Part shown: positions 2,993 to 60,000 of the stretch, in pieces
Numbering within the stretch: position 1 is the stretch's first letter
Layout: the number at the start of each line of letters is the position of its first letter
NCBI GenBank assembly: GCA_030390025.1
Contig: CM059432.1
Location: forward strand, 77,688,001 to 77,748,000
Direction: 5' to 3'
DNA from: Squalus acanthias
Taxonomy: Eukaryota
Length of the DNA: 60,000 nt
Notes under the pieces: generated by a model
What the model was told of the DNA's origin: nothing
What the model saw: the letters and a program-made list of their open reading frames with translations, nothing else
Database searches by the model: none
Made by a program: the position numbers and the translations under genes

Positions 2993-4508
2993 CTTTTTTT
3001 TATTCGATTATGGGATGTGGGCATCGCTGGCAAGGCCAGCATTTATTGCCCATCCCTAGTTGCCCTTGATCAAGTGGTGGTGAGCCACCTTCTTGAAACG
3101 CTGCAGTCCGTGTGGTGAAGGTACTCCCACAGTGTTGTTAGGGAGGGAGTTCCAGGATTTTGACCCAGCGACGATGAAGGAATGGCGATATACTTCTAAG
3201 TCAGGATGGTGTGTGACATGGAGGGGAACTTGGAGTTGGTGGTGTTCCCATGCTCCTGCTGATCTTGTCCTTCTAGATGGAAGAGGTCGCGGGTTTGGGA
3301 GGTGCTGCCGAAGAAGCCTTGACGAGTTGCTGCAGTGCATCTTGTAGATGATACACACTGCAGCCATGGTACGCCGTGGTGGAAGGAGTGAATGTTTAAG
3401 GTGCTGGATGGGGTGCCAATCAAGCGGGCTGCTTTGTCCTGGATGGTGTCGAGCTTCTTCAGTGTTGTTGGAGCTGCACTCATCCAGGCAAGTGGAGAGT
3501 ATTCCATCACACTCCTTACTTGTGCCTTGTAGATGGTAGAAAGGCTTTGGGAAGTCAGGCGGTGAGACACTCGCCGCAGAATACCTAGCCTCTCACCTGC
3601 TCTTGTTGCCACAGTATTTATGTGGCTGGTCCAGTTAAGTTTCTGGTCAATAGTGACCCCCAGGATGTTGATGGTGGGGGATTCGGCAATGGTAATGCCA
3701 TTGAATGTCATGGGGCGGTGGTTAGACTCTCGCTTGTTGGAGATAGTCAATGCCTGGCACTTCTGTGGCGTGAATGTTACCTGCTACTTATCAGCCCAAG
3801 CCTGAACGTCGTCCAGATCTTGTTGCATGTGGGCACGGACTGCTTCATTATCTGAGGAGTTGTGAATGGCACTGAATACTGTGCAGTCATCAGCAAACAT
3901 CATAATTTCTGACCTTATGTTGGAGGGAAGGTCATTGATGAAGCAGTTGAAGATGGTTGGGCCTAGGACACTGCTCTGAGGAACTCCTGCAGCGATGTCC
4001 TGGGGCTGTGATGATTGACCATCAATCACCATAACCATCTTCCTTTGTGCTAGGTATGACTCCAGCCAGTGGAGAGTTTTCCCCCCGATTCCCATTGACT
4101 TCAGTTTTACTAGGGCTCCTTGATGCCACACTCAGTCAAATACTGCCTTGATTGAGAGTAGACTGATGGGGCGGTAATTGGCCGGATTGGATTTGTCCTG
4201 CTTTTTGTGGACAGGACATACCTGGGCAGTTTTCCACATTGTCGGATAGATGCCAATGTTGTAGCTGTGCTGGAACAGCTTGGCTAGAGGCGCAGCTAGT
4301 TCTGGAGCACAAGTCTTCAGCATGATAGCCAGGATGTTGTCAGGGCCCATAGCCTTTGCTGTATCCAGTGCGCTCAGCCATTTCTTGATATTACGTGGAG
4401 TGAATCGAATTGGCTGAAGACTGGCTTCTGTGATGGTGGGGACCTCAGGAGGAGGCCAATTTGGATCATCCACTTGGTACTTCTGGCTGAAGATGGTTGC
4501 GAACACTT
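2993..4508 (-). mobile_element. Family-A LINE (APE-RT, CR1-superclade/Zenon-like), 3' portion with RT, internal deletion near 4150
   Basis: ORFs with PVHKKQDKSNPANYRPISLL, GVPQSSVLGP, FADD, LGVTIDQKLNW; poly(A) tail at 2993-3001; continues at 10087 after a CR1 insertion. Confidence 0.9.
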
Positions 4509-6571
4509 CATAGAAACATAGAAAAATAGGAGCAGGAGTAGGCCATTCTGCCCTTCAAGCCTGCTCCGCCATTCAATATGATCATGGCTGATCCTCTATC
4601 ATCTCAATACCATATTCCCGCTCTCTCCCCATACCCCTTGATGCCTTTTGTGTCTAGAAATCTATCTATCTCCTTCTTAAATATATTCAGTGACTTGGCC
4701 GCCACAGCCTTCTGTGGTAGAGAATTCCACAGGTTCACCACCCTCTCCTCATCTCAGTCCTAAATGTCCTACCCCGTATCCTGAGACTGTGACCCCTCGT
4801 TCTAGGCCCCCCAGCCAAGGGAAACATCCTCCCTGCATCCAGTCTGTCTAGCCCTGTCAGAATTTTATACCTTTCCATGAGATCCCCTCTCATTCTTCTA
4901 AACTCTGGTGAATACAGGCCTAGTTGACCCAATCTCTCCTCATACGACAGTCCTGCCATCCCAGGAATCAGTCTGGTGAACCTTCGCTGCACTCCCTCTA
5001 TGGCAAGTATATCCTTTCTTAGGTAAGGAGACCAAAACCGCACACAGTACTCCAGGTGTGGTCTCACCAAAGCCCTGTAAAACTGTAGTAAGACATCCTT
5101 GCTCCTGTACTCAAATCCTCTTCCAATGAAGGCCAACATACCATTTGCCTTCCTAACTGTTTGCTGCACCTGCATGTTTACTTTCAGTGACTGGTGTACA
5201 AGGACACCCAGGTCCCTTTGTACATCAACATTTCCCAATCTATCACCATTTAAATAATACTCTGCCTTTCTGTTTTTCCTACTGAAGTGGATAACTTCAC
5301 ATTTATCCACGTTATACTGCATCTGCCATGTATTTGCCCACTCACTCAACTTGTCTAAATCGCCTTGAAGCCTCTTTGCATCCTCCTCACAACCCCACTC
5401 TGGGATGCAGATTATCAGGCCCTGGGGATTTATCAGCTTTCAGTCCCATTAATTTCTCTAGCACTATTTTTTTACTAATACTAATTTCCTTTAGTTCCTC
5501 TTTCTCACTAGACCCTTGGTTCCTGAGCATTTCTGGGAAGTTATTTGTGTCCTCTTCCGTGAAGACAGAACCAAAGTATTTGTTTAATTGCTCAGCCATT
5601 TCCTTGTTCCCCATTATAAATTCTCCAGTTTCTGACTGTAAGTGACCTACAGTTGTCTTCACTAATCTTTTTCTTTTTACATACTTGTAGAAGCTTTTAC
5701 AGTCCGCATTTATGTTCCTTGCAAGTTTACTCTCATACTCTATTTTTCCCATCTTAATCAATCTCTTGGTCCTTTTTTTCTGAATTCTAAACTGTCCCAA
5801 TCGTCAGGCTTGCTACTTTTTCTGGCAACTTTATATGAGTCCTCTTTGGATCTAATGCATTCGTACCTTAAATGTTAGCCATTGCCTATCCACCATCATG
5901 CCTTTTAATGAAGCTCCCCAATCTATCATAGACAACTCCCTCCTCATACCTTCGTAGTTTTCTTTGTTCCAATTTAGGACCCTAGTTTCGGATTGGACTA
6001 CTTCAAATTCCATCTTAATGAAGAATTCTATCATGTTATGGTCACTCTTCCCTAAAGGACTGCGCACAACAAGATTATTAATTAACCCATTCTCATTGCA
6101 CAATACCCAATCTAGGATAACCTGTTCCCTAGTTGGCTCCTCAACGTACTGGTCTAAAAAACTATCTTGTACACACTCCAGGAATTCATCCTCCACAGTA
6201 TTATTGCTAATTTGGTTTGGCCAGTCTATATGTAGATTAAAGTCACCCATGATTACTATAGTTACATGCATCTCTAATTTCCTGCTATATGCCATCTCCT
6301 ACATTACCACTACAGTTTGGAGGCCTATGTATAACTCCCACCAATGTTGTCTGCCCCTTGGTGCTTCTTAGCTCTACCCAGACTGATTCTACATCTTGAT
6401 TTTCCGAGTCAATATCCTTTCTCACTATTGCTCTGATTTCATCCTTTACTAACAACGCCACCCCACCTCCTTTTCCTTTCGCCTGTCCTTCCTAAATATT
6501 GAATATCCTTGGATATTCAGCTCCCAGCCTTGGTCACCCTGCAGCCATGTCTCCGTAATCGCAATTATATC

Positions 6572-9482: not shown

Positions 9483-9697
9483 TATTTTATTAATTTATTT
9501 AATTAATTAGTTTAGTGTTAATCAAATTATTTACCTCATTTAGTTTATTAAATTAAGTTTAGTTTTTAAAATTTAGTTATATGCTATATGTTAACTTAAA
9601 ACTTAGCCCACAGTCACTACCAATCACTTACCTGCCTTACCTGTGATGTCACGCTGTAGTTTTCTCTTGTAGTTGCAGGTCTGCGGCTGCTTTTATC

Positions 9698-9916
9698 CCC
9701 GCTCTCGGGCCTCGGTCCGCTCCCGCTCTCGGGCCTCGGTCCGCTCCCGCTCTCGGGCCTCGGTCCGCTCCCGCTCTAGGGCCTCGGTCCGCTCCCGCTC
9801 TCGGGCCTCGGTCCGCTCCCGCTCTCGGGCCTCGGTCCGCTCCCGCTCTCGGGCCTCGGTCCGCTCCCGCTCTCGGGCCTCGGTCTGCTCCCGCTCTCGG
9901 GCCTCGGTCTGCTCCC
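9698..9916. repeat. 24-bp CpG-rich tandem repeat, 9 units, in CR1 5'UTR
   Basis: Unit CCCGCTCTCGGGCCTCGGTCCGCT repeated nine times. Confidence 0.95.
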
Positions 9917-10086
9917 ACTCAGGTCCACCACCGCTCTGCGGGAGAGGTTAGGAAAAGCAAGGCAAAGCAGCACCTCCTTCCCCCACTTCACCGAACTCCC
10001 ACACTTACCAAACTCCCAAGTTGTTCACTCTGCGCCAAGCTGCACTCAGTGCCAAACTGAACTCCAACCTCCCTTGTTTATACTGC

Positions 10087-11132
10087 TGTCTTTTGCACTC
10101 GCATGCTGGGCTCCATCATCATTGAGGATGGGGATATTCATGGAGCCTCCTCCTCCCGTTAGTTGTGTAATGGTCCACCACCATTCACAACTGGATGTGG
10201 CAGGCCTGGAGAGCTTTGATCTGATCCGTTGATTGTGGGATCGCTTAGCCCTGTCTATAGCATGCTGCTTCCGCTTTTTAGCATGCATGTAGTTCTGTGT
10301 TGTAGCTTCCCCAGGTTGGCACCTCATTTTTAGGTATGCCTGGTGCTGCTCCTGGCATGCTCTTCTACACTCCTTATTGAACCAGGATTGGTCCCCTGGC
10401 TTGATGTAATGGTAGAGTGAGGGATATGCCAGGCCATGAGGTTATAGACTGTGGTGGAATATAATTCTGCTGCTGCTGATGGCCCACAGTGCCTCATGCA
10501 TGCCCAGTTTTGAGCTGCTAGATCTGTTCTGAATCTATCCCATTTAGCATGGTGGTAGTGCCACACAACACGATGGAGGGTGTCCTCAGTGTGAAGATGG
10601 GACTTCGTCTCCACAATAACTGTGCGGTGGTCACTGCTACCAATGCTGTCATGGACAGATGCATCTGCGACAGGTAGATTGGTGAGGACGAGGTCAAGTA
10701 GGTTTTTCCCTCGTGTTGATTCTCTCACCACCTGTCGCAGGCCCAGACTGGCAGTTATTTCCTTCAGGATTCGGCCAGCTCGATCAGTAGTGGTGCTACC
10801 GAGCTACTCTTGGTGATGGACGTTGAAGTCCCCCACCCAGAGTACATTCTGCGCCCTTGCTACTCTCGGTGCTTCTTCCAAGTGGTGTTCAACATGGCAG
10901 AGTACTGATTCATCAGCTGAGGGAGGGTGGTAAGTGGTAATCAGCAGGAGGTTTCCTTGCCCATGCTTGACCTGAAGCCATGGGACTTCATGGGGTCCGG
11001 AGTCAATGTTGAGGACTCCCAGGGCCACTCCTTCCCGACTGTATACCACTGTGCCACCACCCCTGTGGGTCTGTCCTGCCGGTGGGACAGGACATACCCA
11101 GGGATGGTGATGGGAGAGTTTGGCACATTGGC
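10087..11132 (-). mobile_element. Family-A LINE, 5' (APE endonuclease) portion of the copy at 2993-4508, 5'-truncated
   Basis: GGGTVVY, YHPPS, GDFNVHH, LDLVLTN, SDH motifs; sequence is continuous with 4508 when compared to 50060-50095. Confidence 0.9.
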
Positions 11133-11819
11133 TATGGAGGAGTTTGGGACCTTCCGACCCTGTGGCAGGAGTGCATCCAATTGTGCCAAGCTGACACTTG
11201 TAGATGATCAAAGTACTACAAAAAGTTTCCTTTCTACCTGTTACATCTTGATCGAGGCCACATGAAAAGCACTTAGAGAACTGTATAGCTCTCTCATAGC
11301 TTAACATGCTTGTCCTTACTGTACCAGTGCAAACTTTCTAGCTGCAACTTTGAGTTGCAACTATTGTTGCACTTATATCTGTAGAGGTGCCTGAAAGCAA
11401 GCTTCCAAAAAACTTCGCTGTATGATGCACGTTTGTTTATTTACACACACTGAAATGCAGTATAGGAGCTTGGGTGTCACTGCTGTACTCTTAAAATTGC
11501 AACTTCCCTGTACTTAAGTGTCAGCCTTGACAATGTGCTTAAGAAAGCAGCACATAATACGAGGAGAAAACCCCACACAGGAGGAGGGCTTTCAGTGCAT
11601 TTGAGGACTTTTGTCAAAATCTTAGAGATTGAGAGTAGAGAGGGGTGGAGGAATGAGAAACTAGAGGCCTCTCTCAGGACTCAGGACCATTCTTTTCCTG
11701 TTTCCCTTGATCCCTCTATTCAAAGACTCGAATACAATACCATGATACACATTACCATGTCAGTATTATTTGAAGGGGTGTTTTGTTACCATAATTCTAA
11801 TATTTCTCTCCAGTTCATA

Positions 11820-12579
11820 TACAAGTGCCAGGCAATGACTATCTCCAACAAGCGAGAGTCTAACCACCTCCCCTTGACATTCAATGGCATTACCATCGCC
11901 GAATCCCCCACTATCAACATCCTGGGGGTCACCATTGACCAGAAACTTAACTGGACCAGCCACATAAATACTGTGGCAACAAGAGCAGGTCAGAGGCTAG
12001 GTATTCCACGGCGAGTGTCTCACCGCCTGACTTCCCAAAGCCTTTCTACCATCTACAAGGCACAAGTAAGGAGTGTGATGGAATACTCTCGACTTGCCTG
12101 GATGAGTGCAGCTCCAACAACACTCAAGAAGCTCAACACCATCCAGGACAAAGCAGCCCACTTGATTGGCACCCCATCCACCACCTTAAACATTCACTCC
12201 CTCCACCACCGGCATACCGTGGCTGCAGTGTGTACCATCTACAAGATGCACTGCAGCAACTCGCCAAGGCTTCTTCGGCAGCACCTCCCAAACCCGCAAT
12301 CTCTTCCACCCAGAAGGACAAGGGCAACAGGTGCATGGGAACACCACAACCTCCAAGTCACACACCATCCTGACTTGAAAATATATCGCCGATCCTTCAT
12401 AGTCGCTGGGTCAAAATCCTGGAACTCCCTCCCTAACAGCACTGTGGGAGTAACTTCACCACACGGACTGCAGCGGTTCAAGGCGGCGGCTCACCGCCAC
12501 CTTCTCGAGGGCCATTAGGGATGGGCAATAAATGCTGGCCTTGTCAGCGACGTCCACATCCCATAAACGAATAAAAAAA
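11820..12579 (+). mobile_element. Family-A LINE 3' fragment
   Basis: KCQAMTISNKRESNHLPLTFNG... to 3' hairpin and A-tail. Confidence 0.9.
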
Positions 12580-16911: not shown

Positions 16912-17596
16912 AATAATAATAAATAACAACAGAAAACGCTGGAAAAACTCAGCAGGCCAGGCAGCATCCGTGGAGAGAAAAACAGAGTTAACGTTTCAGG
17001 TCGAAGACCTTTCGTCAGAACTGGAAAAAAACAGGCAATGGAATAGATTTTAAAGCAGGTTTAGGGGCAGCACCTCATCTTTCGATTAGGCACTCTACAG
17101 CCCTCTGGACTCAACATAGAGTTCAACAATTTCAGATCATAACCTCGGCCCCTATCACATATATATATATTTTTTAATCCACACTTTTTGTTTGGCCTTT
17201 TTTTCTCTCCTCCCACATGGCAGCTGTCCTTCATTCTGCCAGCGCATTTCACACTTCATCTGGAGCCATCCTTTGTTCCTTAACCTGTCACATTACCACC
17301 TCCTCTTGTCTTGAATATATCTTAATGTCTCTCAATGTCTCTCAATCTCTCCTGCTTTCTATCCTATCACTGACCTTCCCTTTTGTTCTTTCATCCCCTC
17401 CCCCATTTCCCCGCCCCTAAACCTGCTTTAAAATCTATTCCATTGCCTGCTTTTTTCCAGTTCTGACGAAAGGTCTTCGACCTGAAATGTTAACTCTGTT
17501 TCTCTCTCCACGGATGCTGCCTGGCCTGCTGAGTTTTTCCAGCGTTTTCTGTTGTTATTTCGGATTTCCAGCATCCGCAGTATTTTGCTATTGTAT
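16912..17596 (+). mobile_element. Penelope-like element remnant with inverted pseudo-LTR and minimal hammerhead motifs
   Basis: ~148-bp inverted arms 16921-17068 / 17413-17560; GIY-YIG-type C-terminus QHLIFRLGTLQPSGLNIEFNNFRS*; CTGACGA-stemII-GAAA at 17463-17487; 14-bp flanking duplication AAGCTATTTTATAT. Confidence 0.85.
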
Positions 17597-27765: not shown

Positions 27766-28708
27766 ATGGGAGAACAGGAGATGTGTTGCTGCTGCAATAT
27801 GTGGGAGCTTGTGGACATTTTTGTCCAAGGGCGACTACATCTGCGGTAAGTGTCTGCGGCTCGAGGAACTTCGGCTCCGAGTTGAGGAGCTGGAGTCCGA
27901 ACTGCAGACATTGCGAGACATCACAGAGGGAGAAAGTTACCTGGACCTTTTGCTCCAGGAGGCAGCCACACCCCTTAGATTAAATACTTTAGAATTGACA
28001 CGTGGTCAGGGACAGGAGGGTGTGACTGTGAGTGAGGCAGGTATGGGGATCCAGGAGGTAGTATTGCAGGAGCCTCAGTCCCTGCTCTTGTCCAATAGAT
28101 TTGAGGTCCTTGCAACCCTTGTGGACAAGTGCAGGGACTGCGGGGAGGACGAGCAAACTGACCACGGAACCGTGGTACAGGAAGCTGTTCAAGTGGGTGG
28201 ACTAAAAAGGAAGATGGTTGTAGTAGGTGACAGTATAGTTAGGGGGATAGACACTGTTCTCTGCAGCCAGGAGCGTGAGTCCCCAAGGCTATGTTGCCTA
28301 CCCGGTACCAGGGTAAAGGACATCTCCTCCGGGCTGGAGAAGAACTTGGAGTGGGAGGGGGAGGATCCAGTTGTCGTGGTCCACATAGGAACCAACGACA
28401 TAGGTAGGACAAAGAAAGAGGTTCTGCTGAGAGAGTTTGAGCAGCTAGGGACTAAATTAAAAAGCAGAACCACAAAGGTCATAATCTCTGGATTATTACC
28501 AGATCCACGAGCAAATTGGCATAGGGTCAATAGGATCAGGGAGATGAATGCATGGCTCAAAGATTGGTGTGGGAGAAGTGGGTTTCGATTCGTGGGGTAC
28601 TGGGGAAAGAGAGAGCTGTTCCGTTGGGATGGACTACACCTGAACCATGCTGAGACCAGAGTTCTAGCGAATCGAATAACTAGGGAGATAGATAGGGTTT
28701 TAAACTAA
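27766..28708 (+). pseudogene. CR1 ORF1 (Zn finger, leucine zipper, SGNH esterase), +1 frameshift near 27828
   Basis: ATG 27766 MGEQEMCCCCNMW; extra base in GTCCAAGGGCGAC versus copy 1; GDSI/GTND/DGLHL motifs. Confidence 0.9.
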
Positions 28709-28755
28709 ATAAGGGGGGGGGGGGGCGGGAGGGTCCTGGTGGAGAGAAATCTAGA

Positions 28756-31730
28756 ATGCTAAAGAGAAAAGACAAGGAAGCAGTGCAGGAAAGTGATTGG
28801 GGTAAGGATAACCAGATTGTGTCAGGAAGGGACAGAACGTACAAACAAAGGAGTGCACTAACAAATAGGGTCCGGGTAAGAAAAAATGGTAATAAGACAA
28901 ATAGGGCCATAGTACAAAAAAATGTTAAGATCTCTAAAAATGTTAAAAAGACAAATCTAAAGGCACTGTATCTGAATGCACAAAGCATTCATAATAAGGT
29001 AGACGAATTAACAGCGCAAATAGATGTAAATGGATATGATATAATTGCGATTACGGAGACATGGCTGCAGGGTGACCAAGGCTGGGAGCTGAATATCCAA
29101 GGATATTCGATATTTAGGAAGGACAGGTGAAAAGGAAAAGGTGGCATTGTTAGTAAAGGATGAAATCAGAGCAATACTGAGAAAGGATATTGGCTCAGAA
29201 AATAAAGATGTAGAATCAGTCTGGATGGAGCTAAGAAGCACCAAGGGGCAGAAAACATTGGTGGGAGTTGTCTATAGGCCTCCAAACAGTAGTGGTAATG
29301 TAGGGGATGGCATCAAACAGGAAATTAGAGATGCATGTAACAAGGGTACTACAGTAATCATGGGTGACTTTAATTTACATATAGACTGGCCAAACCAAAT
29401 TAGTAATAATACTGTGGAGGATGAATTCCTGGAGTGTGTACGAGATGGTTTTTTCGACCAGTACTTGGAGGAGCCAACTAGGGAACAGGCTATCCTAGAT
29501 TGGTTATTGTGCAATGAGAAGGGGTTAATTAATAATCTTGTTGTGCGGGGTCCTTTCGGGAAGAGTGACCATAACATGATAGAATTCTTCATTAAGATGG
29601 AAAGTGAAGAAGTCCAATCTGCAACTAGGGTCCTAAATCTAAACAAAGGAAACTACGAAGGTATGAGGAGGGAGTTGGCTATGATAGATTGGGAAGCTTC
29701 AAAAAACGGCATGATGGTGGATAGGCAATGGCTAACATTTAAGGAACGAATGCATGAATTGCAACAGTTATACATTCCTTTCTGGCGCAACAACACAAAA
29801 GGAAAAGCGGCCCAACCATGGCTAACAAAAGAAATTAAGGATAGTATTAGATCCAAAGAGGAGTCATATAAAGTTGCCAGAAAAAGTAGCAAGCCTGAGG
29901 ATTGGGAGCAGTTTAGAGTTCAGCAAAAAAGGACCAAGAGATTGATTAAGATGGGAAAAATAGAGTATGAGAGTAAACTTGCAAGGAACATAAACGCAGA
30001 TTGTAAAAGCTTCTACAAGTATGTAAAAAGAAAAAGATTAGTGAAGACAAATGTAGGTCCCTTACAGTCAGAAACTGGAGAAGTTATAATGGGGAACAAG
30101 GAAATGACTGAGCAATTAACCAAATACTTTGGTTCTGTCTTCACGGAAGAGGACACAAATAACTTCCCAGAAATGCTAGGGAACCAAGGGTCTAGTGAGA
30201 AGGAGGAATTAAAGGAAATTAGTATTAGTAAAAAAAAATAGTGCTGGAGAAATTAATGGGACTGAAAGCTGATAAATCCCCAGGGCCTGATAATCTGCAT
30301 CCCAGAGTACTAAAAGAGGTAGCCATGGAAATAGTGGATGCATTGGTTGTCATCTTCCAAAATTCTATAGATTATGGAACAATTCCTGCAGATTGGAGGG
30401 TGGCAAATGTAACCCCACTATTTAAAAGAGGGAGAGAGAAAACAGGGAACTACAGACCAGTTAGCCTAACATCAGTAGTAGGAAAAATGCTAGAGTCTAT
30501 TATAAAGGATGTGATAACAGGACACTTAGAAAATATCAACGGGATTAGACAAAGTCAACATGGATTTATGAAAGGGAAATCGTATTTGACAAACCTACTT
30601 GAGTTTTTTGAGGATGTAATTGGTAGAATAGATAAGGGAGAACCAGTGGATGTGGTGTATTTGGATTTTCAGAAGGCCTTTGATAAAGTCCCACATAAAA
30701 GAGGTTAGTGTGCAAAATTAAAGCACATGGGATTGGGGGTAACATACTGGCATGGATTGAAAGTTGGTTAACAGACAGGAAACAGAGAGTAGGAATAAAT
30801 GGGTCTTTTTCAGGGTGGCAGGCGGTGACTAGTGGGGTACCGCAGGGATCAGTGCTTGGGCCCCAGCTATTCACATGATTTGGATGAGGGAACCAAATGT
30901 AATATTTCCAAGTTTGCTGATGACACGGAACTAGGTGGGATTGTGAGTTGTGAGGAGGATGCAAAGAGGCTTCAAGGCGATTTAGACAAGTTGAGTGAGT
31001 GGGCAAATACGTGGCAGATGCAGTATAACGTGGATAAATGTGAAGTTATCCACTTCGGTAGGAAAAACAGAAAGGCAGAGTATTATTTAAATGGTGATAG
31101 ATTGGGAAATGTTGATGTATAAAGGGACCTGGGTGTCCTTGTACACCAGTCACTGAAAGCAACCATGCAGGTGCAGCAAGCAGTTAGGAAGGCAAATGTT
31201 ATATTGGCCGTCATTGCAAGAGGATTTGAGTACAGGAGCAAGGATGTCTTACTACAGTTATACAGGGCCTTGGTGAGACCACACCTGGAGTACTGTGTGC
31301 TTTTTTGTTCTCCTTATCTAAGAAAGGATATGCTTGCCATAGAGGGAGTGCAGCGAAGGTTCACCAGACTGATTCCTGGGATGGCAGGACTGTCGTATGA
31401 GGAGAGATTGGGTCGACTAGGCCTGTATTCACTAGAGTTTAGCAGAATGAGAGGGGATCTCATGGAAACGAATAAAATTCTGACAGGGCTAGACAGACTG
31501 GATGCAGGGAGGATGTTTCCCCTGATTGGGGGTCTAGAACGAGGGGTCATAGTCTCAGGATACGGGGTAGGACATTTAGGACTGAGATGAGGAGAAATTT
31601 CTTCACTCAGAGGGTGGGGAACCTGTGGAATTCTCTACCACAGACAGCTGAGGAGGCCAAGTCACTGAATATATTTAAGGAGATAGATAGATTTCTAGAC
31701 ACAAAAGGCATCAAGTGGTATGGGGAGAGA
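28756..31730 (+). pseudogene. CR1 ORF2 (APE endonuclease + reverse transcriptase), disrupted
   Basis: YLNAQSI, ITETWL, YRPP, GDFN, SDH, NYRPVSLTS, YLDFQKAFD and FADD across several ORF pieces; 3' end approximate. Confidence 0.9.
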
Positions 31731-34792: not shown

Positions 34793-35020
34793 TTAGCAAT
34801 GAGAGAATCTCCCAGAATTCACAATTTAAACCCAGATAAAATCTATTCACATTATTCGCTACAACAAAGAGCACAGCCAAGACAATGAGATGTGTCCCAG
34901 GGGGTCCAACGTGTCAAACCACCTGCTGGCTGCATATCCTGTCAATTTGTGTTCTTGTGTTAGCCTTTTTAAAAAAAAAACCAAAAAAAAACACCTGGGA
35001 AGACCGGCCATGATGTCAAG

Positions 35021-36076
35021 TCACGTTCTGTATCGTGACATGAACCCGATATCGCGATTGAGACCATCCTCATGAGTGCGGAACTTGGCTATCAGTTTCT
35101 GCTCTATGATTTTGCGCTGTCGTGTATCTCGAAGGCCGCCTTGGAGAACGCTTACCCGCAGATCCGAGGCTGAATGCCCCTGGCTGCTGAAGTGTTCCCC
35201 GACTGGGAGGCAACCCTCCTGCCTGGCGATTGTTGCGCGGTGTCCGTTCATACGTTGTCTCAGTGTCTGCATGGTCTCGCCGATGTACCATGCTCTGGAG
35301 CATCCTTTACTGCAACGTATCAGGTAGACAACGTTGGCCGAGTCACATGAGTATGTACCGTGTACCTGGTGGGTAGTGTCCTCACGTGTAATGATGGTAT
35401 CTGTGTCCATGATTTGGCATGTCTTGCAGAGGTTGCCGTGGCAGGGTTGTGTGGTGTCTTGGTTGCTGTTCTCCTGAAAGATGGGTAATCTGCTGCGAAC
35501 GATGGTACTTTTGAGGTTAGGCGGCTGCTTGAAGGCGAGTAGTGGAGGCGTGGGGATGGCCTTAGCAAGGTGTTCGTCGTCATCGATGACATGTTGAAGG
35601 CTGCGAAGAACATGGCGTAGTTTTTCCGCTCCGGGGAAGTACTGGACGACGTAGGGTACTCTGTTGGTTGTGTCCCGTGTTCGTCTTCTGAGGAGGTCTA
35701 TGCGGTTTTTCGCTGTGGCCCGTCGGAACTGTCGATCGACGAGTCGAGCGTCATATCCCGTTCTTACGAGAGCGTCTTTCAGTGTCCGTAGGTGTCCATC
35801 GCGTTCCTCCTCGTCTGAGCAGATCCTGTGTATTCGCAGGGCTTGTCCATAGGGGATGGCTTCTTTAACGTGGTTAGGGTGGAAGCTGGAGAAGTGGAGC
35901 ATCGTGAGGTTGTCCGTGGGCTTGCGGTAGAGTGAAGTGCTGAGGCGTCCGTCTTTGATGGAGATTCGTGTGTCCAAGAATGAAACCGATTCTGAGGAGT
36001 AGTCCATGGTGAGTTTGATGGTGGGATGGAACCTGTTGATGCTATCGTGTAGTCCTTTCAGTGATCCTTCGCCGTG
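35021..36076 (-). CDS. Penelope RT C-terminus + GIY-YIG endonuclease (partial, uninterrupted)
   Basis: ~350 codons open; the first residues of the listed ORF come from flanking DNA. Confidence 0.85.
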   Translation of the reverse strand, partial: HGEGSLKGLHDSINRFHPTIKLTMDYSSESVSFLDTRISIKDGRLSTSLYRKPTDNLTMLHFSSFHPNHVKEAIPYGQALRIHRICSDEEERDGHLRTLKDALVRTGYDARLVDRQFRRATAKNRIDLLRRRTRDTTNRVPYVVQYFPGAEKLRHVLRSLQHVIDDDEHLAKAIPTPPLLAFKQPPNLKSTIVRSRLPIFQENSNQDTTQPCHGNLCKTCQIMDTDTIITREDTTHQVHGTYSCDSANVVYLIRCSKGCSRAWYIGETMQTLRQRMNGHRATIARQEGCLPVGEHFSSQGHSASDLRVSVLQGGLRDTRQRKIIEQKLIAKFRTHEDGLNRDIGFMSRYRT

Positions 36077-36725
36077 AAGAGCAATTGCATGCTTCATCAT
36101 ATAAGCATTCTATGAGAGGGGCTGCAGTAATTACAAGGATATGTCTACCAAACTATTGCTTCAAGCACATGAACAGTGGATGAACCAAGCCTGAAACACA
36201 TTTACAGTAAAAATGTTTATTAAAGATAACAGGGACAAGACACGTTTAAAAAAAGTTTAAAACCTTTGTTATTCATATCAAATATTAAACATAAAATCAG
36301 ACAAGTAACTGAATTAAAAATGCTTTTAAAAAAGCATATTTATATTACCATTATTGAAATCTATGACATTTCACTTGTGGAGGGGGCACCAAAACTAGGG
36401 GCCATAAATATAAAATATGTACACAATAGGTTTTGTAAATTTAAAATTTAATTTCTGTAAAAATTTGTTGGATTAAATAGTGAAAGGTATCAAGAAAACA
36501 TTGTCAACAGATTATTGTCCCATTTATACATAAAACGCATTCAGTTTAAGAGAAAGTCCCTAGACACTTCTGCAGCCCTTTACCCAAGTACTAATCATTT
36601 AATAGAGAGTAACTTGAAAAACTCCTTGAAAGAATTGCATTTACAGAGCACATTTCATGTCCTCAGGGCATTCCAAAGTGCTTCATAGACAATTAATTTG
36701 TTTGTTCAAGGTGGCAACTGTTATT

Positions 36726-38610: not shown

Positions 38611-40020
38611 CTTCTTCTTCTTAGGCAGTTCCTCGGAACTGAGGATGACTTGCTTCCACACTAAAAATGAGTTCTCAGGTGACTGATGAGTCCAACACGA
38701 GACCTACAGTCTCTGTCACAGGTGGTTGAAGAGGCGGGTGGGTGGGGTGCTTGGGTTGACGTGCGCTCCTTCCGCTGTTTGAGCTTGGCTCCCGCTTGCT
38801 CCCGGCGAAGAGACTCGAGGTGTTCGGCGCCTTCCTGGATGCTTCTCCTCCACTTTGTGCAGTCTTGGGCCAGGGATTCCCAGGTGTCGTGGGGATGTTG
38901 TACTTTTTCAAGGAGGCTTTGAGGGTGTCCTTGAAGCGTTTCCTCTGCCTACCTGGGGCTCTCTTGCCGTGTCGGAGCTCCGAGTAGAACGCTTGTTTTG
39001 GGAGTCTCGTATCGGGCATGCGGACGATATGGCCCGTCCATTGGAGCTGATCGAGTGTGGTAAAAGCTTCGATGCTGGGGGTGTTGGCCTGAGCGAGAAC
39101 ACTGACGTTGGTGTACCTATCCTGCCAATGGATTTGCAGGATCTTGCGGAGGCAGCGTTGGTGGTACCTCTCCAGTGCTTTGAGGTGCCTGCTGTACATG
39201 GTCCATGTCTCTGAAGCATACAGGAGGGCGGGTATCACTACTGCTCTGTAGACCATCAGCTTGGTGCTGGGTTTGAGGTCCTGGTCTTCAAACACTCTCT
39301 TTCTCAGGCGACCGAAGGCTGCACTGGCACACTGAAGGCGGTGTTGGACTTCGTCATCGATGTCTGCCCTTGTTGACAGTAGGCGCCTGAGGTATGGAAA
39401 GTGGTCCACGTTGTCCAAGGCCTCATCATGGATTTTGATAATCGGGGAGCAGTACTGTGTGGCGGGGGCAGGTTGGTAGAGGACCTTTGTCTTAGTGGAT
39501 GTTTAGTGTAAGGCCTATGCTCTTGTACGCTTCGGTGAAGGTGTTGACGATGGTTTGGAGTTCGGCCTCAAGCGTGTGCGCAGACGCAAGCGTTGTCTGC
39601 ATACTGTGATTCGATGACAGAGGATGGGACGACCTTGGATCTGGACTGGAGGCGATGGAGGTTGAACAGTTTCCCGTTTGTTCTGTAGATTAGCTCCACT
39701 CCAGTGGGGAGCTTACTGAGGGTGAGCTGGAGCATTGCAGCCAGGAAGATCGAGAAGAGCATTGGTGCAATGACACAGCCTTGCTTGACCCCGGTCTGTA
39801 CGTGAATTGGGTCTGTGGTGGATCCGTTGGGCAGGATCACGGCTTGCATGTCGTCGTGAAGCAGGCGGAGGATGGTGACAAACTTTTGAGGGCAGCCGAA
39901 TTTGAGGAGGACACTCCATAATCCTTCATGGTTGATGGTGTCGAAGGCCTTTGTGAATTCAAAGAAGGCCATGTAGAGCGGTTGGTGCTGTTCCTGCATT
40001 TCTCTTGTAGTTGACGCGCG
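38611..40020 (-). mobile_element. RTE-clade LINE, 5'-truncated
   Basis: RQLQEKC...PLYMAF...KAFD...GVKQGC.IAP..F...YADN; HFPYL; LLYASETWT; RLPKQ..YSEL; (GAA)n tail. Confidence 0.92.
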
Positions 40021-40329
40021 TTGGAATAATAGCTACATTTTATTAGCAAGAATTTTGAAAATCATAACACATAAAGGGTAGCTTTCCTTCAGAGACCATA
40101 TTGCAGTCTGCACAGCATCAGACAAACTTGTACATGCATAACACATTCAGGGCATGGAACACTGGAACACACTGCAGCAGGCTTTCAAGCCTGAATGGAT
40201 TGGATACTCAATACAAAGCACCAACATGCAGAGCACCAAAATCCCATTTAGCAGATACACACTGGAGGACATTGTGCAGCTGACGTCTGTGGTATAATAG
40301 GAAGTTTACTCTAATACTGCTGCTAATAT

Positions 40330-40596
40330 CCCGCGACCTCTACCACCTAGAAAGACAAGGGCAGCAGGTCCACCTCCAAGTCACACACCATCCTGACTTG
40401 GAAGTATATCGCCGTTCCTTCATCGTCGCTGGGTCAAAATCCTGGAACTCCCTCCCTAACAGCACTGTGGGAGTACCTGCACCACATGGACTGCAGCGGT
40501 TCAAGAAGGCGGCTCACCACCACCTTCTTAAGGGCAATTAGGGATGGGCAATAAATGCTGGCCTTGCCAGCAACGCCCACATCCCATGAACGAATA
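40330..40596 (+). mobile_element. Family-A LINE 3' end fragment
   Basis: Matches 51477-51750 including the terminal hairpin. Confidence 0.9.
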
Positions 40597-47217: not shown

Positions 47218-48069
47218 TAGTGGTCATGATGCGGAGATGCCGGTGTTGGACTGGGGTGGACAAAATTGAGAGGTCGCACAACACCAGGTTATAGTCCAAC
47301 AGTTTTATTTGAAATCACAAGCTTTCGGAGCTATCGATTGCCCCTTCCTCAGGTGAAGTAAATTAGATACAGAATCACCAAAGCATATATAGATAGAGAA
47401 CAAAGCATGTGTACCTTACAATTGCAGACCACTAAATTAAATCATCCTGACTATCTGCCGAGGTGTGATAAAGTTAATCAAGTCAGCCAGGAAGGTACCA
47501 CATCAAAGACATAGCAAGATACAACTGAGACAATGAGGTGTAGTCGCAGGGGTTCTAACGTGTCAAAAGCTGCCGTCTGTATGTAAAACGAAAAGCTTTA
47601 AAATTTTTACTTTTTTACTGGGAAAATTTTTACTTTTTTACTGGGAATCACATCTGTGAACAAGCCAACGACGACTCGAGTCCGGATCACGTCATGTATC
47701 GTGACATAAACCCAAGATCCCGGTTGAGACCGTCTTCATGAGTGCAGAACTTGGCTATCAGTTTCTGCTCGATGATTTTGCGTTGTCGTGTGTTTCTAAG
47801 GTTGCCTTGGAGAACGCTTCCTTCCTGATGTGGTACCTTCCTGGCTGACTTGATTAACTTTATCACACCTCGGCAGATAGTCAGGATGATTTAATTTAGT
47901 GGTCTGCAATTGTAAGGTACACATGCTTTGTTCTCTATCTATATATGCTTTGGCGATTCTGTATCTAATTTACTTCACCTGAGGAAGGGGCAATCGATAG
48001 CTCCGAAAGCTTGTGATTTCAAATAAAACTGTTGGACTATAACCTGGTGTTGTGCGACCTCTCAATTTT
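47218..48069 (-). mobile_element. Penelope-like remnant with 244-bp inverted pLTR arms and two hammerhead motifs
   Basis: Arms 47262-47505 / 47826-48069 (one mismatch seen); internal GIY-YIG C-terminus EQKLIAKFCTHEDGLNRDLGFMSRY; CTGAGGA...GAAAGCTT at 47979-48012; 12-bp duplication TTTATAAACAGA. Confidence 0.9.
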
Positions 48070-48512: not shown

Positions 48513-51500
48513 TGACGGGAACAGTAGCATAGTGGTTATGTTACTGGACTAGTAATCCAGAGGCCTGTACTAATAATCCAGAGACGTGAGATCAAATCCC
48601 ACCACGGCAGCTGGGGAATTTAAATTCAGTTAATTAAATAAATCTGGAATAAAAAGCTAGTATCAGTAATGGTGACCATGAAACTATTGGATTGTCGTTA
48701 AAAACCCATCTGGTTCACTAAGGTCCTTTAGGGAAGGAAATCTGCCGTCCTTACCTGGTCTGGCCTATATGTGACTCCAGACCCACAGCAATGTGGTTGA
48801 CTCTTTACTGCCCTCTGAAATGGCCCAGCAAGCCACTCAGTTGTAACAAACCGCTACGATAAACAATAATAAGAATAAAACTGGACGGACCACCCGGCAT
48901 CGACCTAGGCACCGACTACGGACACGTCAACGGCAAACCCAGCTCAGCCGACCCTGCAAAGTTCTCCTTACGAACATCTGGGGCATATGCCAAAATTGGG
49001 AGAGCTGTTGCAAAGACTAGTCAAGCCTGACATAGCCATACTCACAGAATCATACTTTTCAGCCAACGTCCCAGACTCCTCCATCACCATCCCTGGGTAC
49101 GTCCTGTCCCACCGGCAGGACAGACCCACCAAAGGTGGTGGCACAGTGATATACAGTCGGAGTGAGTGGCTCTGGAAATCATCAACATTGACTCCGGACC
49201 CCATGGCTCATGGCTTCAGGTCAAGCATAGGCAAGGAAACCTCCTGCTGATTACCACCTACTGCCCGCCCTCAGCTGATGAATCAGTACTCCTCCATGTT
49301 GAACATCACTTGGAAGAAGCACGGAGAGTAGCAAGGGCACCGAATGTACTCTGGGAGGGGGGGGGACTTCAATGTCCATCACCAAGAGTGGCTCGGTTGC
49401 ACCACTACTGACCGAGCCCTGAAGGATATAGCTGCCAGTCTGGGCCTGCGACAGGTGGGGAGAGAACCAACACGAGGGAAAAACCTACTTGACCTCGTCC
49501 TCACCAATCTACCTGTCGCAGATGCATCTGTCCATGACAGCATTGGTAGCAGTAACAACCGCAGTCCCGTCTTCACACTGAGGACACCCTCCATCGTGCT
49601 GTGTGGCACTACCACCGTGCTAAATGGGATAGATGCAGAACAGATCTAGCAGCTCAAAACTGGGCATCCATGAGGAGCTGTGGGCCATCAGCTGCAGAAT
49701 TGTATTCCACAACAATCTGTAACCTCATGTCCTGGCATATCCCACCATTACCATCAAGCCAGGGGACCAACCCTGGTTCAATGAGGAGCGTAGAAGAGCA
49801 TGCCAGGAGCAGCACCAGGCGTACCTAAAAATGAGGTGTCAACCTGGGGAAGCTGCAAAACAGGACTACATGCATGCTAAACAGCGGAAGCAGCATGCTA
49901 TAGACAGGGTTAAGTGATCCCACAATCAACGGCTCAGATCAAAACTCTACAGTCCTGCCACATTGAGTCGTGAATGGTGGTGGACCATTAAACAACTAAC
50001 GGCAGGAGGAGGCTCCATGAATATCCCCATCCTTAATGATGGTGGAGCCCAGCACGTGAGTGCAAAAGACAAGGCTGAAGCGTTTGCAATCATCTTCAGC
50101 CAGAAGTGCCGAGTGGATGATCCATACTGGCCTCCTCCGGAGGTTCCCACCATCACAAAAGCCAGTCTTCAGCCAATTCGATTAACTCCACGTGATATCA
50201 AGAAATGGCTGAGCGCACTGGATACAGCAAAGGCTATGGGCCTCGACAACATCCCGGCTGTCGTGCTGAAGAACTGTGCTCAAGAACTAGCTGCGCCTCT
50301 AGCCAAGCTGTTCCAGTACAGCTACAACACTGGAATCTATCCGACAATGTGCAAAGCTGCCCAGGTATGTCCAGTCTACAAGAAGCAGGACAAATCCAAT
50401 CCGTCCAATTACCGCCCCATCAGTCTACTCTCAATCATCAGCAAAGTGATGGAAGGTGTCGTCGATAGTGCTATTAAGCGGCACTTACTCACCAATAACC
50501 TGCTCCCGATGCCCAGTTTGGGTTCTGCTAGGACCACTCGGCTCCGGACCTCATTACAGCCTTGGTCCAAACATGGACAAAAGAGCTAAATTCCAGAGGT
50601 GAGGTGAGATCAAGGCAGCATTTGACCGAGTGTGGCATCAAAGAGCCCTAGTAAATGTAAAAATGTCAATGGGAATCAAGGGGGAAAACTCTCCACTGGC
50701 TGGAGTCATACCTAGCACAAAGGAAGATGGTTGTGGTTGTTGGAGGTCAATTATCACAGCCCCAGGACATTGCTGCAGGAGTCCCTCAGGGCAGTGTCCT
50801 AGGCCCAACCATCTTCAGCTGCTTCATCAATGACCTTCCCTCCAGCATAAGGTCAGAAGTGGGGATATTCGCCGATAACTGCACAGTGTTCAGTGCCATT
50901 CGCAACTCCTCAGATAATGAAGCAGTCCATACCTGCATGCAGCAAGACCTGGATGACATTCAGGCTTGGGCTGATAAGTGGCAGGTAACATTCACGCCAC
51001 ACAAGTGCCAGGCAATGACTATCTCCAACAAGCGAGAGTCTAACCACCGCCCCTGGACATTCAACGGCATTACCATTGCTGAATCCCCCGCCATCAACAT
51101 CTTGGGGGGGTCACCATTGACCAGAAACTTAACTGGACCAGCCACATAAATTCTGTGGCAACAAGAGCAGGTCAGAGGCTGGGTATTCTGTGGCGACTGT
51201 CTCACCTCTTGATTCCCCAAAGTCTTTCCACCATCTACAAGGCACAAGGTCAGGAGTGTGATGGAATACTCTCCATTTGCCTGGTTGAGTTCAGCTCCAA
51301 CAACACTCAAGAAGCTCGACACCATACATGACATAGCAGCCCGCTTGCTTGGCACCCCATCCACCACCTTAAACATTCACTCCCTCCACCACCGGCGTAC
51401 CGTGGCTGCAGTGTGTACCATCTGCACGATGCACTGCAGCAACTTGCCAAGGCTTCTTCTACAGCACCTCCGAAACCCGCGACCTCTTCCACCTAGAAGG

Positions 51501-51757
51501 ACAAGGGCAGCAGGCGCATGGGAACACCATCCCCTACAAGTTACACACCATCCTGACTTGGAAGTTTATCGCCGTTCCTTCATCATCGCTGGATCAAAAT
51601 CCTGGAACTCCCTCTCTAACAGCACTGTGGGAGTACCTTCACCACAAGGACGACAGCGGTTCAAGAAGGCGGCTCACCAGCACCTTCTCAAGGGCAATTA
51701 GAGATGGGTAATAAATGCTGTCCTTGCCAGCGACGCGATGAACGAATAAAAAAAAAA
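48513..51757 (+). mobile_element. Full-length family-A LINE with tRNA-derived 5' head, single APE-RT reading frame (disrupted in this copy)
   Basis: tRNA-like head 48517-48605; APE from LLTNIWG (48964) with [37 protein letters not shown]; stop at 51701; hairpin and A-tail; both ends defined by the interrupted CR1 host. Confidence 0.92.
48525..48599 (+). promoter_or_regulatory. Pol III type-2 internal promoter (A and B boxes) in tRNA-Thr(AGT)-like head
   Basis: A box TAGCATAGTGG (48525-48535); anticodon arm CTGGA-CTAGTAA-TCCAG (48544-48560); B-box-like AGATCAAATCC (48589-48599, diverged from GGTTCRAATCC). Confidence 0.75.
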
Positions 51758-51887
51758 GTAACTTTCAAAAGGGAATTGGATATATAGAGCAGGGGAGTGG
51801 GATTAATTGGAAAGCTCTACCAAAGAGCCGGCACAGGCACGAAGGGCCTAATAGCCTCCATCTTTTCTATATTATTCTATGATTCTA

Positions 51888-52629: not shown

Positions 52630-54150
52630 TTACACTTTAGGAAGGATGTCAAGGAAGGATGTCAAGGACTTAAGAGAGGGTGCAGAGATTTACTAGAATG
52701 GTACCAGGGATGAAAGACTTCAGTTATGTGGAGAGACTAGAGAACTGGGGTTGTTCTGCTTAGTGCAGAGAAAGTTAAAGGGAGATTTGATAGAGCTGTT
52801 CAAAATCATGAAGGTTTTTTTTTCGTTTATGGGATGTGGGCGTCGCTGGCAAGGCCAGCATTTATACAATGAAGGAATGGTGATATGCTTCCAAGTCAGG
52901 ATGTTGTGTGACTTGGAGGGGAACTTGGAGGTGGCAGTGTTCCCATGTGCCTGCTGCTGTTGTTCTTCTAGGTGGAAGAGGTCGTGGGTTTGGGAGGTGC
53001 TGTCGAAGAAGCCTTGGCGAGTTGCTGAAGTGCATCTTGTAGATGGTACACACTGCAGCCACGGTACGCCGGTGGTGGAGGGAGTGAATGTTGAAGGTGC
53101 TGGATGGGGTGCCAATCAAGCAGGCTGTTTTGTCCTGGATGGTGTCGAGCTTGTTGTTGGAGCTGCACTCATCCAGGCAAGTGGGGAATATTCCATCACA
53201 CTCCTTACTTGTGCCTTGTAGATGGTGGAAAGGCTTTGGGGAGTCAGGAGGTGAGACACTCGCCGCAGAATACCTAGCCTGACCTGCTCTTGTTACCACA
53301 GTATTTATGTGGCTGGTCCAGTTAAGTTTCTGGTCAACGGTGACCCCCAGAATGTTGATGGTGGGGGATTTGGCGATGGTAATGCCGTTGAATGTCAAGG
53401 GGAGGTGGTTAGACTCTCGCTTGTTGGAGATAGTCATTGCCTGGCACTTCTGTGGCGCGAATGTTACCTGCCACTTATCAGCCCAAGCCTGAACGCCGTC
53501 CAGGTCTTGTTGCATGCGGGCATGGACTGCTTCATTATCTGAGGAGTTGTGGATGGCGCTGAACACTGTGCAGTCATCAGCGAACATCCCCATTTCTGAC
53601 CTTATGTTGAAGGGAAGGTCATTGATGAAGCAGCTGAAGATGGTTGGGCCTAAGACACTGCCCTGAGGAACTCCTGCAGCGATGTCCTGGGGCTGTGATG
53701 ATTGACCCTCAACCACCACAACCATCTTCCTTTGTGCTAGGTATGACTCCAGCCAGTGGAGCGTTTCCCCCCCCCCGATTCCCATTGACTTCAGTTTTAC
53801 TAGGGCTCCTTGATAGAGTAAATAAAGAGAAACTGTTTCCAGTGGCATAAGTGTTGGTTACTAGGGTGCACAGATTTAAGGTAATTGGCAAAAGATGTGA
53901 CATGACGGGAAAAAATTATGCAGCGAGTTGTCATGAGCTGGAATGCATTGTCTGAAAGGATGGTGGAAGCAGATTCAAGAATAACTTTCAAAAGGGAATT
54001 GAGTAAATACTTGAATGGGAACAATTTGCAGGATTATGGGGAGGGAGCAGTGGAATGGGACTAAATGGATAGCTCTTTCAAAGAAGCGGTGGCACAGGTA
54101 TGACGGGCCGAATGGCCTCCTGTGCTGTATCAGTCTATGATTCTATGATT
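52630..54150 (+). mobile_element. CR1 3' end split by a family-A insertion
   Basis: CR1 text ...ATCATGAAGG|TTGATAGAGTAAATAAAGAG continuous across the insert; TCTATGATTCTATGA tail. Confidence 0.85.
52815..53812 (-). mobile_element. Family-A LINE 3' fragment
   Basis: [26 protein letters not shown]-tail at 52815. Confidence 0.9.
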
Positions 54151-59761: not shown

Positions 59762-60000
59762 TTTTTTTTTTAATTCATTCACGGGATGTGGGTGTTGCCG
59801 GCAAGGCCAGCATTTATTGCCCATCTCTAATTGCCCTCGAGAAGGTGGTGGTGAGGGCAGTTAATAGTCAACCACATTTCTGTGGGTCTGGAGTCACATA
59901 TAGGCTAGACTGGGTAAGGATGGCCGATTTCCTTCTCTAAAAGGACATTAGTGAACCAGATGGGTTTTTACGACAATCAGACAGCTTCATAGTCACCATT
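59762..60000 (-). mobile_element. SINE-like internally deleted derivative of family-A LINE (continues past window end)
   Basis: 59853-60000 matches LINE 5'UTR 48668-48815; 59762-59855 matches LINE 3' end 51673-51757; junction at a shared CTC. Confidence 0.9.

Follow-up and report, generated by a model that had tools for sequence, protein, structure and literature searches.

Family A and Its Copies in the Window

The DNA analysed here is a 60,000-nt window of the Squalus acanthias genome, to which coordinates given without a locus number refer. At 48517..51757 (+) it carries a full-length, decayed copy of a single-ORF LINE with a tRNA-like head and a poly(A) tail, hereafter family A, which is abundant in this 3.7 Gb genome. 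The copy is 92% identical over its whole length to the family A majority sequence, which was built from 59 aligned genomic copies (3,319 columns), and it is inserted at the 3' end of an older CR1 element, without a target-site duplication in the flanks, which were read directly. Five further copies lie in the window: a 5'-truncated and internally deleted one at 2994..4510 (-), an internal fragment at 10087..11133 (-), 5'-truncated copies at 11823..12579 (+) and 52815..53814 (-), and a 3' fragment at 40330..40596 (+). Copies of family A are dispersed, 5'-truncated and share a common 3' tail, as those of autonomous LINEs are, and the named proteins nearest to it are from sharks (65-87% identity).

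The tRNA-like head (48517..48598, +) is a predicted Pol III type 2 internal promoter. Pattern matching against the A box and B box consensus sequences placed an A box, TAGCATAGTGG, at 48525..48535 (+), and a B box at 48590..48598 (+), which reads GATCAAATC in this copy and GTTCAAATC in most copies of the family. An Rfam tRNA match at 48518-48572 scored 24.4 bits (E 0.015), short of the gathering threshold of 29, and ARAGORN called no tRNA gene in the family A head. The remaining 5' UTR (48599..48846, +) is common to the companion SINE described below until about 48825, and contains two AATAAA and several AUGs; it may resemble the body of a Deu-type SINE. Neither a fold nor an IRES-like signal was detected in the family A 5' UTR (z 0.18; 2 of 77 pairs covary).

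This head is an integral 5' end of the LINE. Full copies have their 5' ends grouped at the GGG of position 48517; among 29 copies selected by their ORF, 12 reach the head and 17 stop short of it at scattered places (46-459), with no alternative common 5' end, and the one pair with a common upstream stretch has it away from the junction. Moreover, head and ORF were inherited together and have diverged equally. No second headed family was found in the genome, two diverged copies (71% and 80%) being traced back to family A, nor was any headed relative found outside the S. acanthias genome. Among related loci, ARAGORN, which misses the family A head too, gave no call in 52, and a head/tail profile together with an A/B box scan matched none of 125, many of whose contigs lack the 5' end. 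Viral contigs gave 21 pattern matches, none of which was confirmed.

Downstream of the 5' UTR lies the remnant of the family A ORF (48847..51701, +; 973 codons, APE endonuclease and RT), which in this copy is interrupted by frameshifts and stop codons. The majority sequence holds a single open frame of 973 codons with endonuclease and RT; Pfam RVT_1 matched with an E of 4e-17, and Exo_endo_phos matched on fragments, under the curated cut-off. The frame begins in an A-rich stretch, encodes an Arg/His-rich peptide (48847-49670 region) and has its first Met only at codon 287 (49670), with near-cognate codons at positions 4 and 9. The head contains eight AUGs, none of which is in frame without an intervening stop. 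In one subfamily, an out-of-frame AUG at majority position 362 starts a frame, about 48 codons long, that overlaps the start of the endonuclease. Upstream of the ORF there are only 333 nt, in which the longest frame overlapping the head has 99 codons, so that family A lacks the ORF1 (esterase/zinc finger) that precedes ORF2 in canonical CR1 elements; the neighbouring CR1 family has a GDSL ORF1. Variants present in at least 15% of copies, classed as shared, comprise 35 synonymous and 20 replacement changes, as compared to 828 and 2,381 among private variants (P 6e-9). Judged from this shift, purifying selection maintained the ORF in the active lineages, where its protein was made and selected.

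The element ends in a 3' UTR with a DNA-encoded poly(A) tail (51702..51757, +; tail at 51748-51757), and no T-run terminator is present in this 3' end. The first T4 run of the 3' flank, at 51863..51866 (+), is the predicted Pol III stop for a transcript that passes position 49056. Other repeats were also noted in the window: a perfect inverted repeat of 244 nt (47262-47505 and 47826-48069, its arms separated by 320 nt), another such pair of 148 nt (16921-17068 and 17413-17560), and an array of 24-nt tandem repeats (9650-9968) upstream of a CR1 ORF1.

The Companion SINE

At 59763..60000 (-), a SINE in which positions 5-302 of the family A head are fused to tail positions 3227-3319 runs off the window, extending about 150 nt beyond it. 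It belongs to an abundant family of about 400 nt, in which, over 25 loci, the head from 5 to 290-326 is joined to a tail starting at 3220-3249, mostly with 89-97% identity to the LINE. The position of the junction varies by tens of bases (L311-L336), which suggests repeated internal deletion or recombination. In addition, the SINEs start mostly with GGGTAC and the LINE with GGGAAC, suggesting that the SINEs multiply on their own. An older version, 69% identical, was seen at L091:135-497. As to the defining features of a tRNA-derived SINE, family A has the 5' tRNA-like head with A and B boxes, but, being 3.3 kb long and having a selected ORF, it is not the short, non-coding element that the 400-nt companion SINE is.

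TTTT Runs on the Sense Strand

The initial annotation had drawn attention to the near absence of TTTT (T4), the canonical Pol III terminator, from the sense strand of this LINE, and its counts were confirmed. The interval 48513-51757 holds a single T4 run (49056..49059, +) and 16 runs of A4 or longer, one of them the poly(A) tail, together with nine C4+ and nine G4+ runs, in a base composition of 28.5% A, 27.6% C, 23.1% G and 20.9% T. The five other copies in the window have no sense T4 at all, and the neighbouring CR1 copy (27767-31700), described earlier as rich in such runs, has eight in 3,934 nt. The suspicion that the single run is a copy-specific C-to-T change also proved right, as position 49056 is C in 43 of the 51 aligned rows and T in one. 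Throughout the 59 copies (129,770 nt) only 20 T4 runs were counted, 42 copies having none; all of these runs depart from the column majority, and no site is common to more than two copies.

What this scarcity means is a different matter. The majority sequence has 19.6% T, an observed/expected TT ratio of 0.72, seven T3 and no T4. Absence of T4 is unusual relative to a base shuffle (4.0 expected, P 0.017), but not relative to a dinucleotide shuffle (1.6 expected, P 0.20) or, for the ORF, a codon shuffle (1.8 expected, P 0.12), so the claimed depletion was not upheld against the stricter nulls (P 0.12-0.22). Nor is the lack of T4 exclusive to a headed LINE: an RTE family of the same genome, which is headless, also has none in its 2,828-nt majority, which leaves out the upstream 5' UTR (inspected in four copies), and three in 43,286 nt of 20 copies (0.07/kb), as compared to 22 in 132,803 nt (0.17/kb) for family A. 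The headless CR1 ORF2 has fewer T4 than its codon shuffle predicts (5 vs 10.7, P 0.008). Phe codon usage (TTT/TTC), proposed as a diagnostic, did not discriminate, since family A (3/15) is matched by RTE (5/19) and Penelope (3/26), CR1 having 23/14, and all 11 conserved Phe columns of family A are kept. We also rejected the contrast between T4 and A4 as evidence; A4 runs stand at their own expectation (15 vs 13-14), and the contrast is thus mostly a matter of composition.

With T4 at its null expectation and a headless RTE equally devoid of it, the T4 argument cannot stand alone, and a T4 count by itself does not suffice to tell whether a LINE is transcribed by Pol III. These figures (19.6% T, TT 0.72, P 0.12-0.22, an RTE without T4) favour an explanation by composition and chance, in which family A would be a normal LINE, transcribed by Pol II, whose sense strand is poor in T and TT and which captured a SINE as its 5' UTR, the lack of T clusters having arisen by luck in one ancestor. 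This explanation is also in keeping with the general view that LINEs are Pol II transcripts (PMC5786205, PMC10886601).

Depletion of the Wider Pol III Terminator Set

Since only family A was poor in TT and T3, non-canonical Pol III terminators were counted as well. According to PMC3141230, human Pol III terminates at T3VT2, T2VT3, TVT3, T3VT and T2VT2, and isolated T3 and T2GT2 are almost inactive; PMC8466645 gives TTTT and TVTTT as the shortest moderately efficient terminators. Our set (T4, TVT3, T2VT2 and T3VT) follows PMC3141230, and the strengths attached to it come from human and rodent assays, the host here being a shark.

The family A majority has one site of this set in 3,309 nt, a TTCTT at 51454..51458 (+), a weak motif for which 15% termination in vitro is given in PMC3141230. 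As compared to this single site, 11.8 were expected from base shuffling (0 of 600 shuffles as low), 6.7 from dinucleotide shuffling (36 of 10,000) and 6.5 from codon shuffling (16 of 5,000), the latter keeping protein, codon use and TpG context, with UTRs dinucleotide-shuffled. The deficit is about six-fold, and its P of 0.003-0.004 under the dinucleotide and the protein, codon and TpG nulls weighs against composition and chance. For the strict pair T4 and TVT3, none was found vs 3.5 (98/5,000) and 3.9 (44/5,000) expected. Control of TpG is needed, since the T content of the majority sequence is raised by CpG decay, T being at 73% of third positions before G; correction for it left the signal weaker, but still present, and in the ORF alone, with overlapping motif counts and TpG fixed, P was 0.021. 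In favour of chance, the terminator statistic is post hoc, the motif set having been adopted once T4 was weak and TT and T3 were low, and it concerns a single family, that is, one evolutionary sample; correction for the five T statistics examined brings P to near 0.02.

The deficit was also seen without the consensus, as all 59 copies are under their own nulls (ratio 0.41), and so are 29 of 29 held-out copies (ratio 0.30), copies being non-independent in both cases; for the companion SINE the ratio is 0.52. Moreover, subfamilies that differ at about 40 sites all keep it. Among 156 shared variants only one new motif arose, a TTGTT, of the T2GT2 pattern which is the one reported as inactive in PMC3141230; the comparison of shared with private motif-creating changes comprises only about 15 shared changes to T. 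After insertion, C-to-T changes at motif-making sites occur at a near-neutral rate (0.017-0.024 vs 0.026). As a rough illustration only, when terminator strengths, some taken from PMC3141230 and some assumed, are multiplied, family A comes out with a read-through of 0.85, the RTE family with 0.06 and the best-scoring of 71 related ORFs with 0.006. Family A thus has the body free of active T-rich terminators that characterizes a Pol III type 2 unit.

Specificity of the Deficit

Several control families were built from the same genome, namely CR1 with ORF1, RTE and Penelope, in addition to a second CR1 and an I/Vingi-like LINE. The terminator set was found 7 times in RTE (6.2 expected), 27 times in CR1 (31.8) and 11 times in Penelope (14.4); the second CR1 family (15 copies) has a ratio of 0.85, the single I/Vingi-like copy has 17 sites vs 16.2 expected, and the control ratios without consensus are 0.85-1.33. 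The RTE family has a tandem-repeat 5' UTR and an AUG start, and no tRNA match was obtained in it. It is abundant (38675-40032 (-); L121-L140), with 16.5% T. The Penelope-like family (34900-36109 (-); L101-L120) is very young, its copies being 99-100% identical, and has a majority frame of 747 codons. The rare I/Vingi-like LINE (L122:327-1130; L368) carries a 5' match to a CPEB3/HDV-like ribozyme (Rfam, 30.2 bits, E 2e-4).

Further afield, 125 related loci were taken from metagenome and genome contigs, of which 71 were scored, having an open frame of at least 500 codons with an RT motif, and 54 were dropped. These 71 ORFs have 2.8-29 terminator sites per kb, or 0.67-1.37 of the dinucleotide null, most of them being T-richer than family A and only four having 23% T or less; the family A ORF, at 0.34 sites/kb and a ratio of 0.20, falls far outside that range. 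None of the 71 is without T4, or without T4 and TVT3 taken together. The closest relatives with upstream DNA, L141 and L142, are headless and have 36 and 20 T4 in their ORFs, and the close, low-T relative L221 (TT 0.80), whose contig does not include the 5' end of the element, has one T4 and eight sites. A short upstream motif is common to L141 (170-215) and L142, in which it occurs twice. Eukaryote-type LINE proteins were encountered on 45 prokaryote genome contigs (L221-L265), most of these contigs being short, likely as host contamination of MAGs.

Isolated T3 is not depleted in family A (7 vs 6.0 and 7.3 expected), and the T-poorer RTE is at expectation for the full set; together with the nulls and with the position of the ORF relative to its relatives, this leaves composition and chance as a rather unlikely explanation. 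Motifs of the same build match their expected counts when made of A (37 vs 36.1) or of C (48 vs 45.7), and the antisense strand does likewise (20 vs 22.8), G-built motifs being somewhat low under the dinucleotide null (20 vs 28.3, P 0.02). No one terminator motif class is significant by itself. Overall, the purge concerns only T, only patterns active in termination, and only family A among the families compared. Non-canonical terminators, with isolated T3 as a built-in control, can thus discriminate where T4 does not.

A real, T-specific deficit could also have come from some other pressure on U clusters of a Pol II transcript, such as splice acceptors, decay or cleavage elements, host U-binding factors or RT pausing, and the milder T4 deficit in the Pol II-type CR1 ORF2 points the same way. 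Nevertheless, pyrimidine runs, tracts followed by AG, splice donors and ATTTA are all at expectation in family A; four AATAAA are tolerated, three of them within the first 370 nt; LINEs exposed to the same pressures have not been purged; and the border between depleted and tolerated patterns tracks Pol III terminator activity. We regard such a pressure as distinctly improbable.

A Probable Pol III Transcript

An integral head with A and B boxes, followed by a nearly terminator-free sense strand, makes it rather likely that the RNA that family A copies back into DNA is made by Pol III, a polymerase otherwise regarded as producing only short, non-coding transcripts. The initial annotation had proposed that the coding sequence was selected for Pol III read-through; its T4 argument did not hold, but its conclusion finds support in the depletion of the wider set. 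TFIIIC and TFIIIB would assemble on the A and B boxes, and Pol III would start at the 5' GGG, pass the body and the poly(A) tail, and end at the first T-run of the flank, as for Alu-type SINEs. A source copy that gained TTTT or TVTTT would yield a truncated RNA without the 3' tail needed by the RT and would leave no descendants, and the motifs would be purged in this way. The companion SINE, with the same head and tail, would be mobilised by the LINE. Least certain is the origin of the protein, which might come from the uncapped RNA through a cap-independent, non-AUG start in the A-rich stretch past the head or, alternatively, from occasional Pol II read-through of family A loci.

This difficulty (translation should be hard for an RNA that is uncapped and offers no AUG upstream of codon 287) and the abundance of the same-headed SINE speak for a further explanation, namely that head and purge are relics of a past Pol III phase, or serve the SINE and deletion derivatives, the LINE RNA that was translated and copied being made by Pol II. 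Under it, one would not expect the purge to span the ORF, a part that is missing from the SINE, nor that subfamilies about 40 sites apart would keep it, or that head and ORF would be inherited together with equal divergence, and we consider it very unlikely. Should Pol III transcription of family A be true, a selected 3.3 kb ORF that follows a tRNA promoter and has been purged of just the motifs at which Pol III stops would break down the division between LINEs and SINEs, and family A would represent a naturally occurring example of Pol III reading through a long unit, combined with uncapped translation. It would also offer a testable origin for the conserved SINE body, a question left open in PMC5786205. 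New to this analysis are the null result for T4 alone, the headless RTE that contradicts the T4 argument, and a test by terminator class against matched controls.

Comparison with Known Systems

Family A resembles single-ORF LINEs of the CR1/L2 group, whose one frame, about 950-1000 codons long, likewise encodes APE and RT. Its nearest relatives outside sharks are 34-38% identical and group with it with a support of 0.94; we presume it to be CR1-Zenon-like, a clade name that was used in the initial annotation, the tree holding only unnamed relatives. LINEs are taken as Pol II transcripts, with Pol III held to be too weakly processive for them (PMC5786205, PMC10886601), and no tRNA-headed or Pol III-transcribed autonomous LINE was found in the titles and abstract openings searched, a scope that leaves aside Repbase reports and most subscription papers.

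R2 and ribozyme-processed LINEs resemble the proposed case in that their RNA comes from the transcript of another polymerase, its 5' end being cut (PMC5786205). R2 depends on the transcription of rRNA genes and inserts at a specific site, whereas family A is dispersed and has its own tRNA-type promoter. R2-type elements are also translated from uncapped RNA without a conserved AUG.

Closest in build to the companion SINE are the SacSINE1/LmeSINE1 elements, tRNA-headed Deu-SINEs of sharks, chimaera and coelacanth, which are likewise built from a tRNA-derived head that includes A and B boxes, a central body and a tail of LINE origin; the likeness to SacSINE1 is presumed from its description. Their host group agrees with the nearest named proteins of family A being from sharks. 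SacSINE1/LmeSINE1 measure 463 bp (PMC2746220), as compared to about 400 nt for the companion SINE. Their partner LINE is CR1-4_DR-like (PMC3747384) or L2-2_CM (PMC5499810), and in the accessible parts of both papers the homology between SINE and LINE is limited to the tail, whereas the family A LINE holds the whole head and body. Finally, bipartite SINEs derived from RTE and Vingi LINEs join the two ends of a LINE, like the companion SINE, but their Pol III head was added after the deletion and their parent LINE is taken to be transcribed by Pol II (PMC5786205), whereas in family A the coding parent is already headed.
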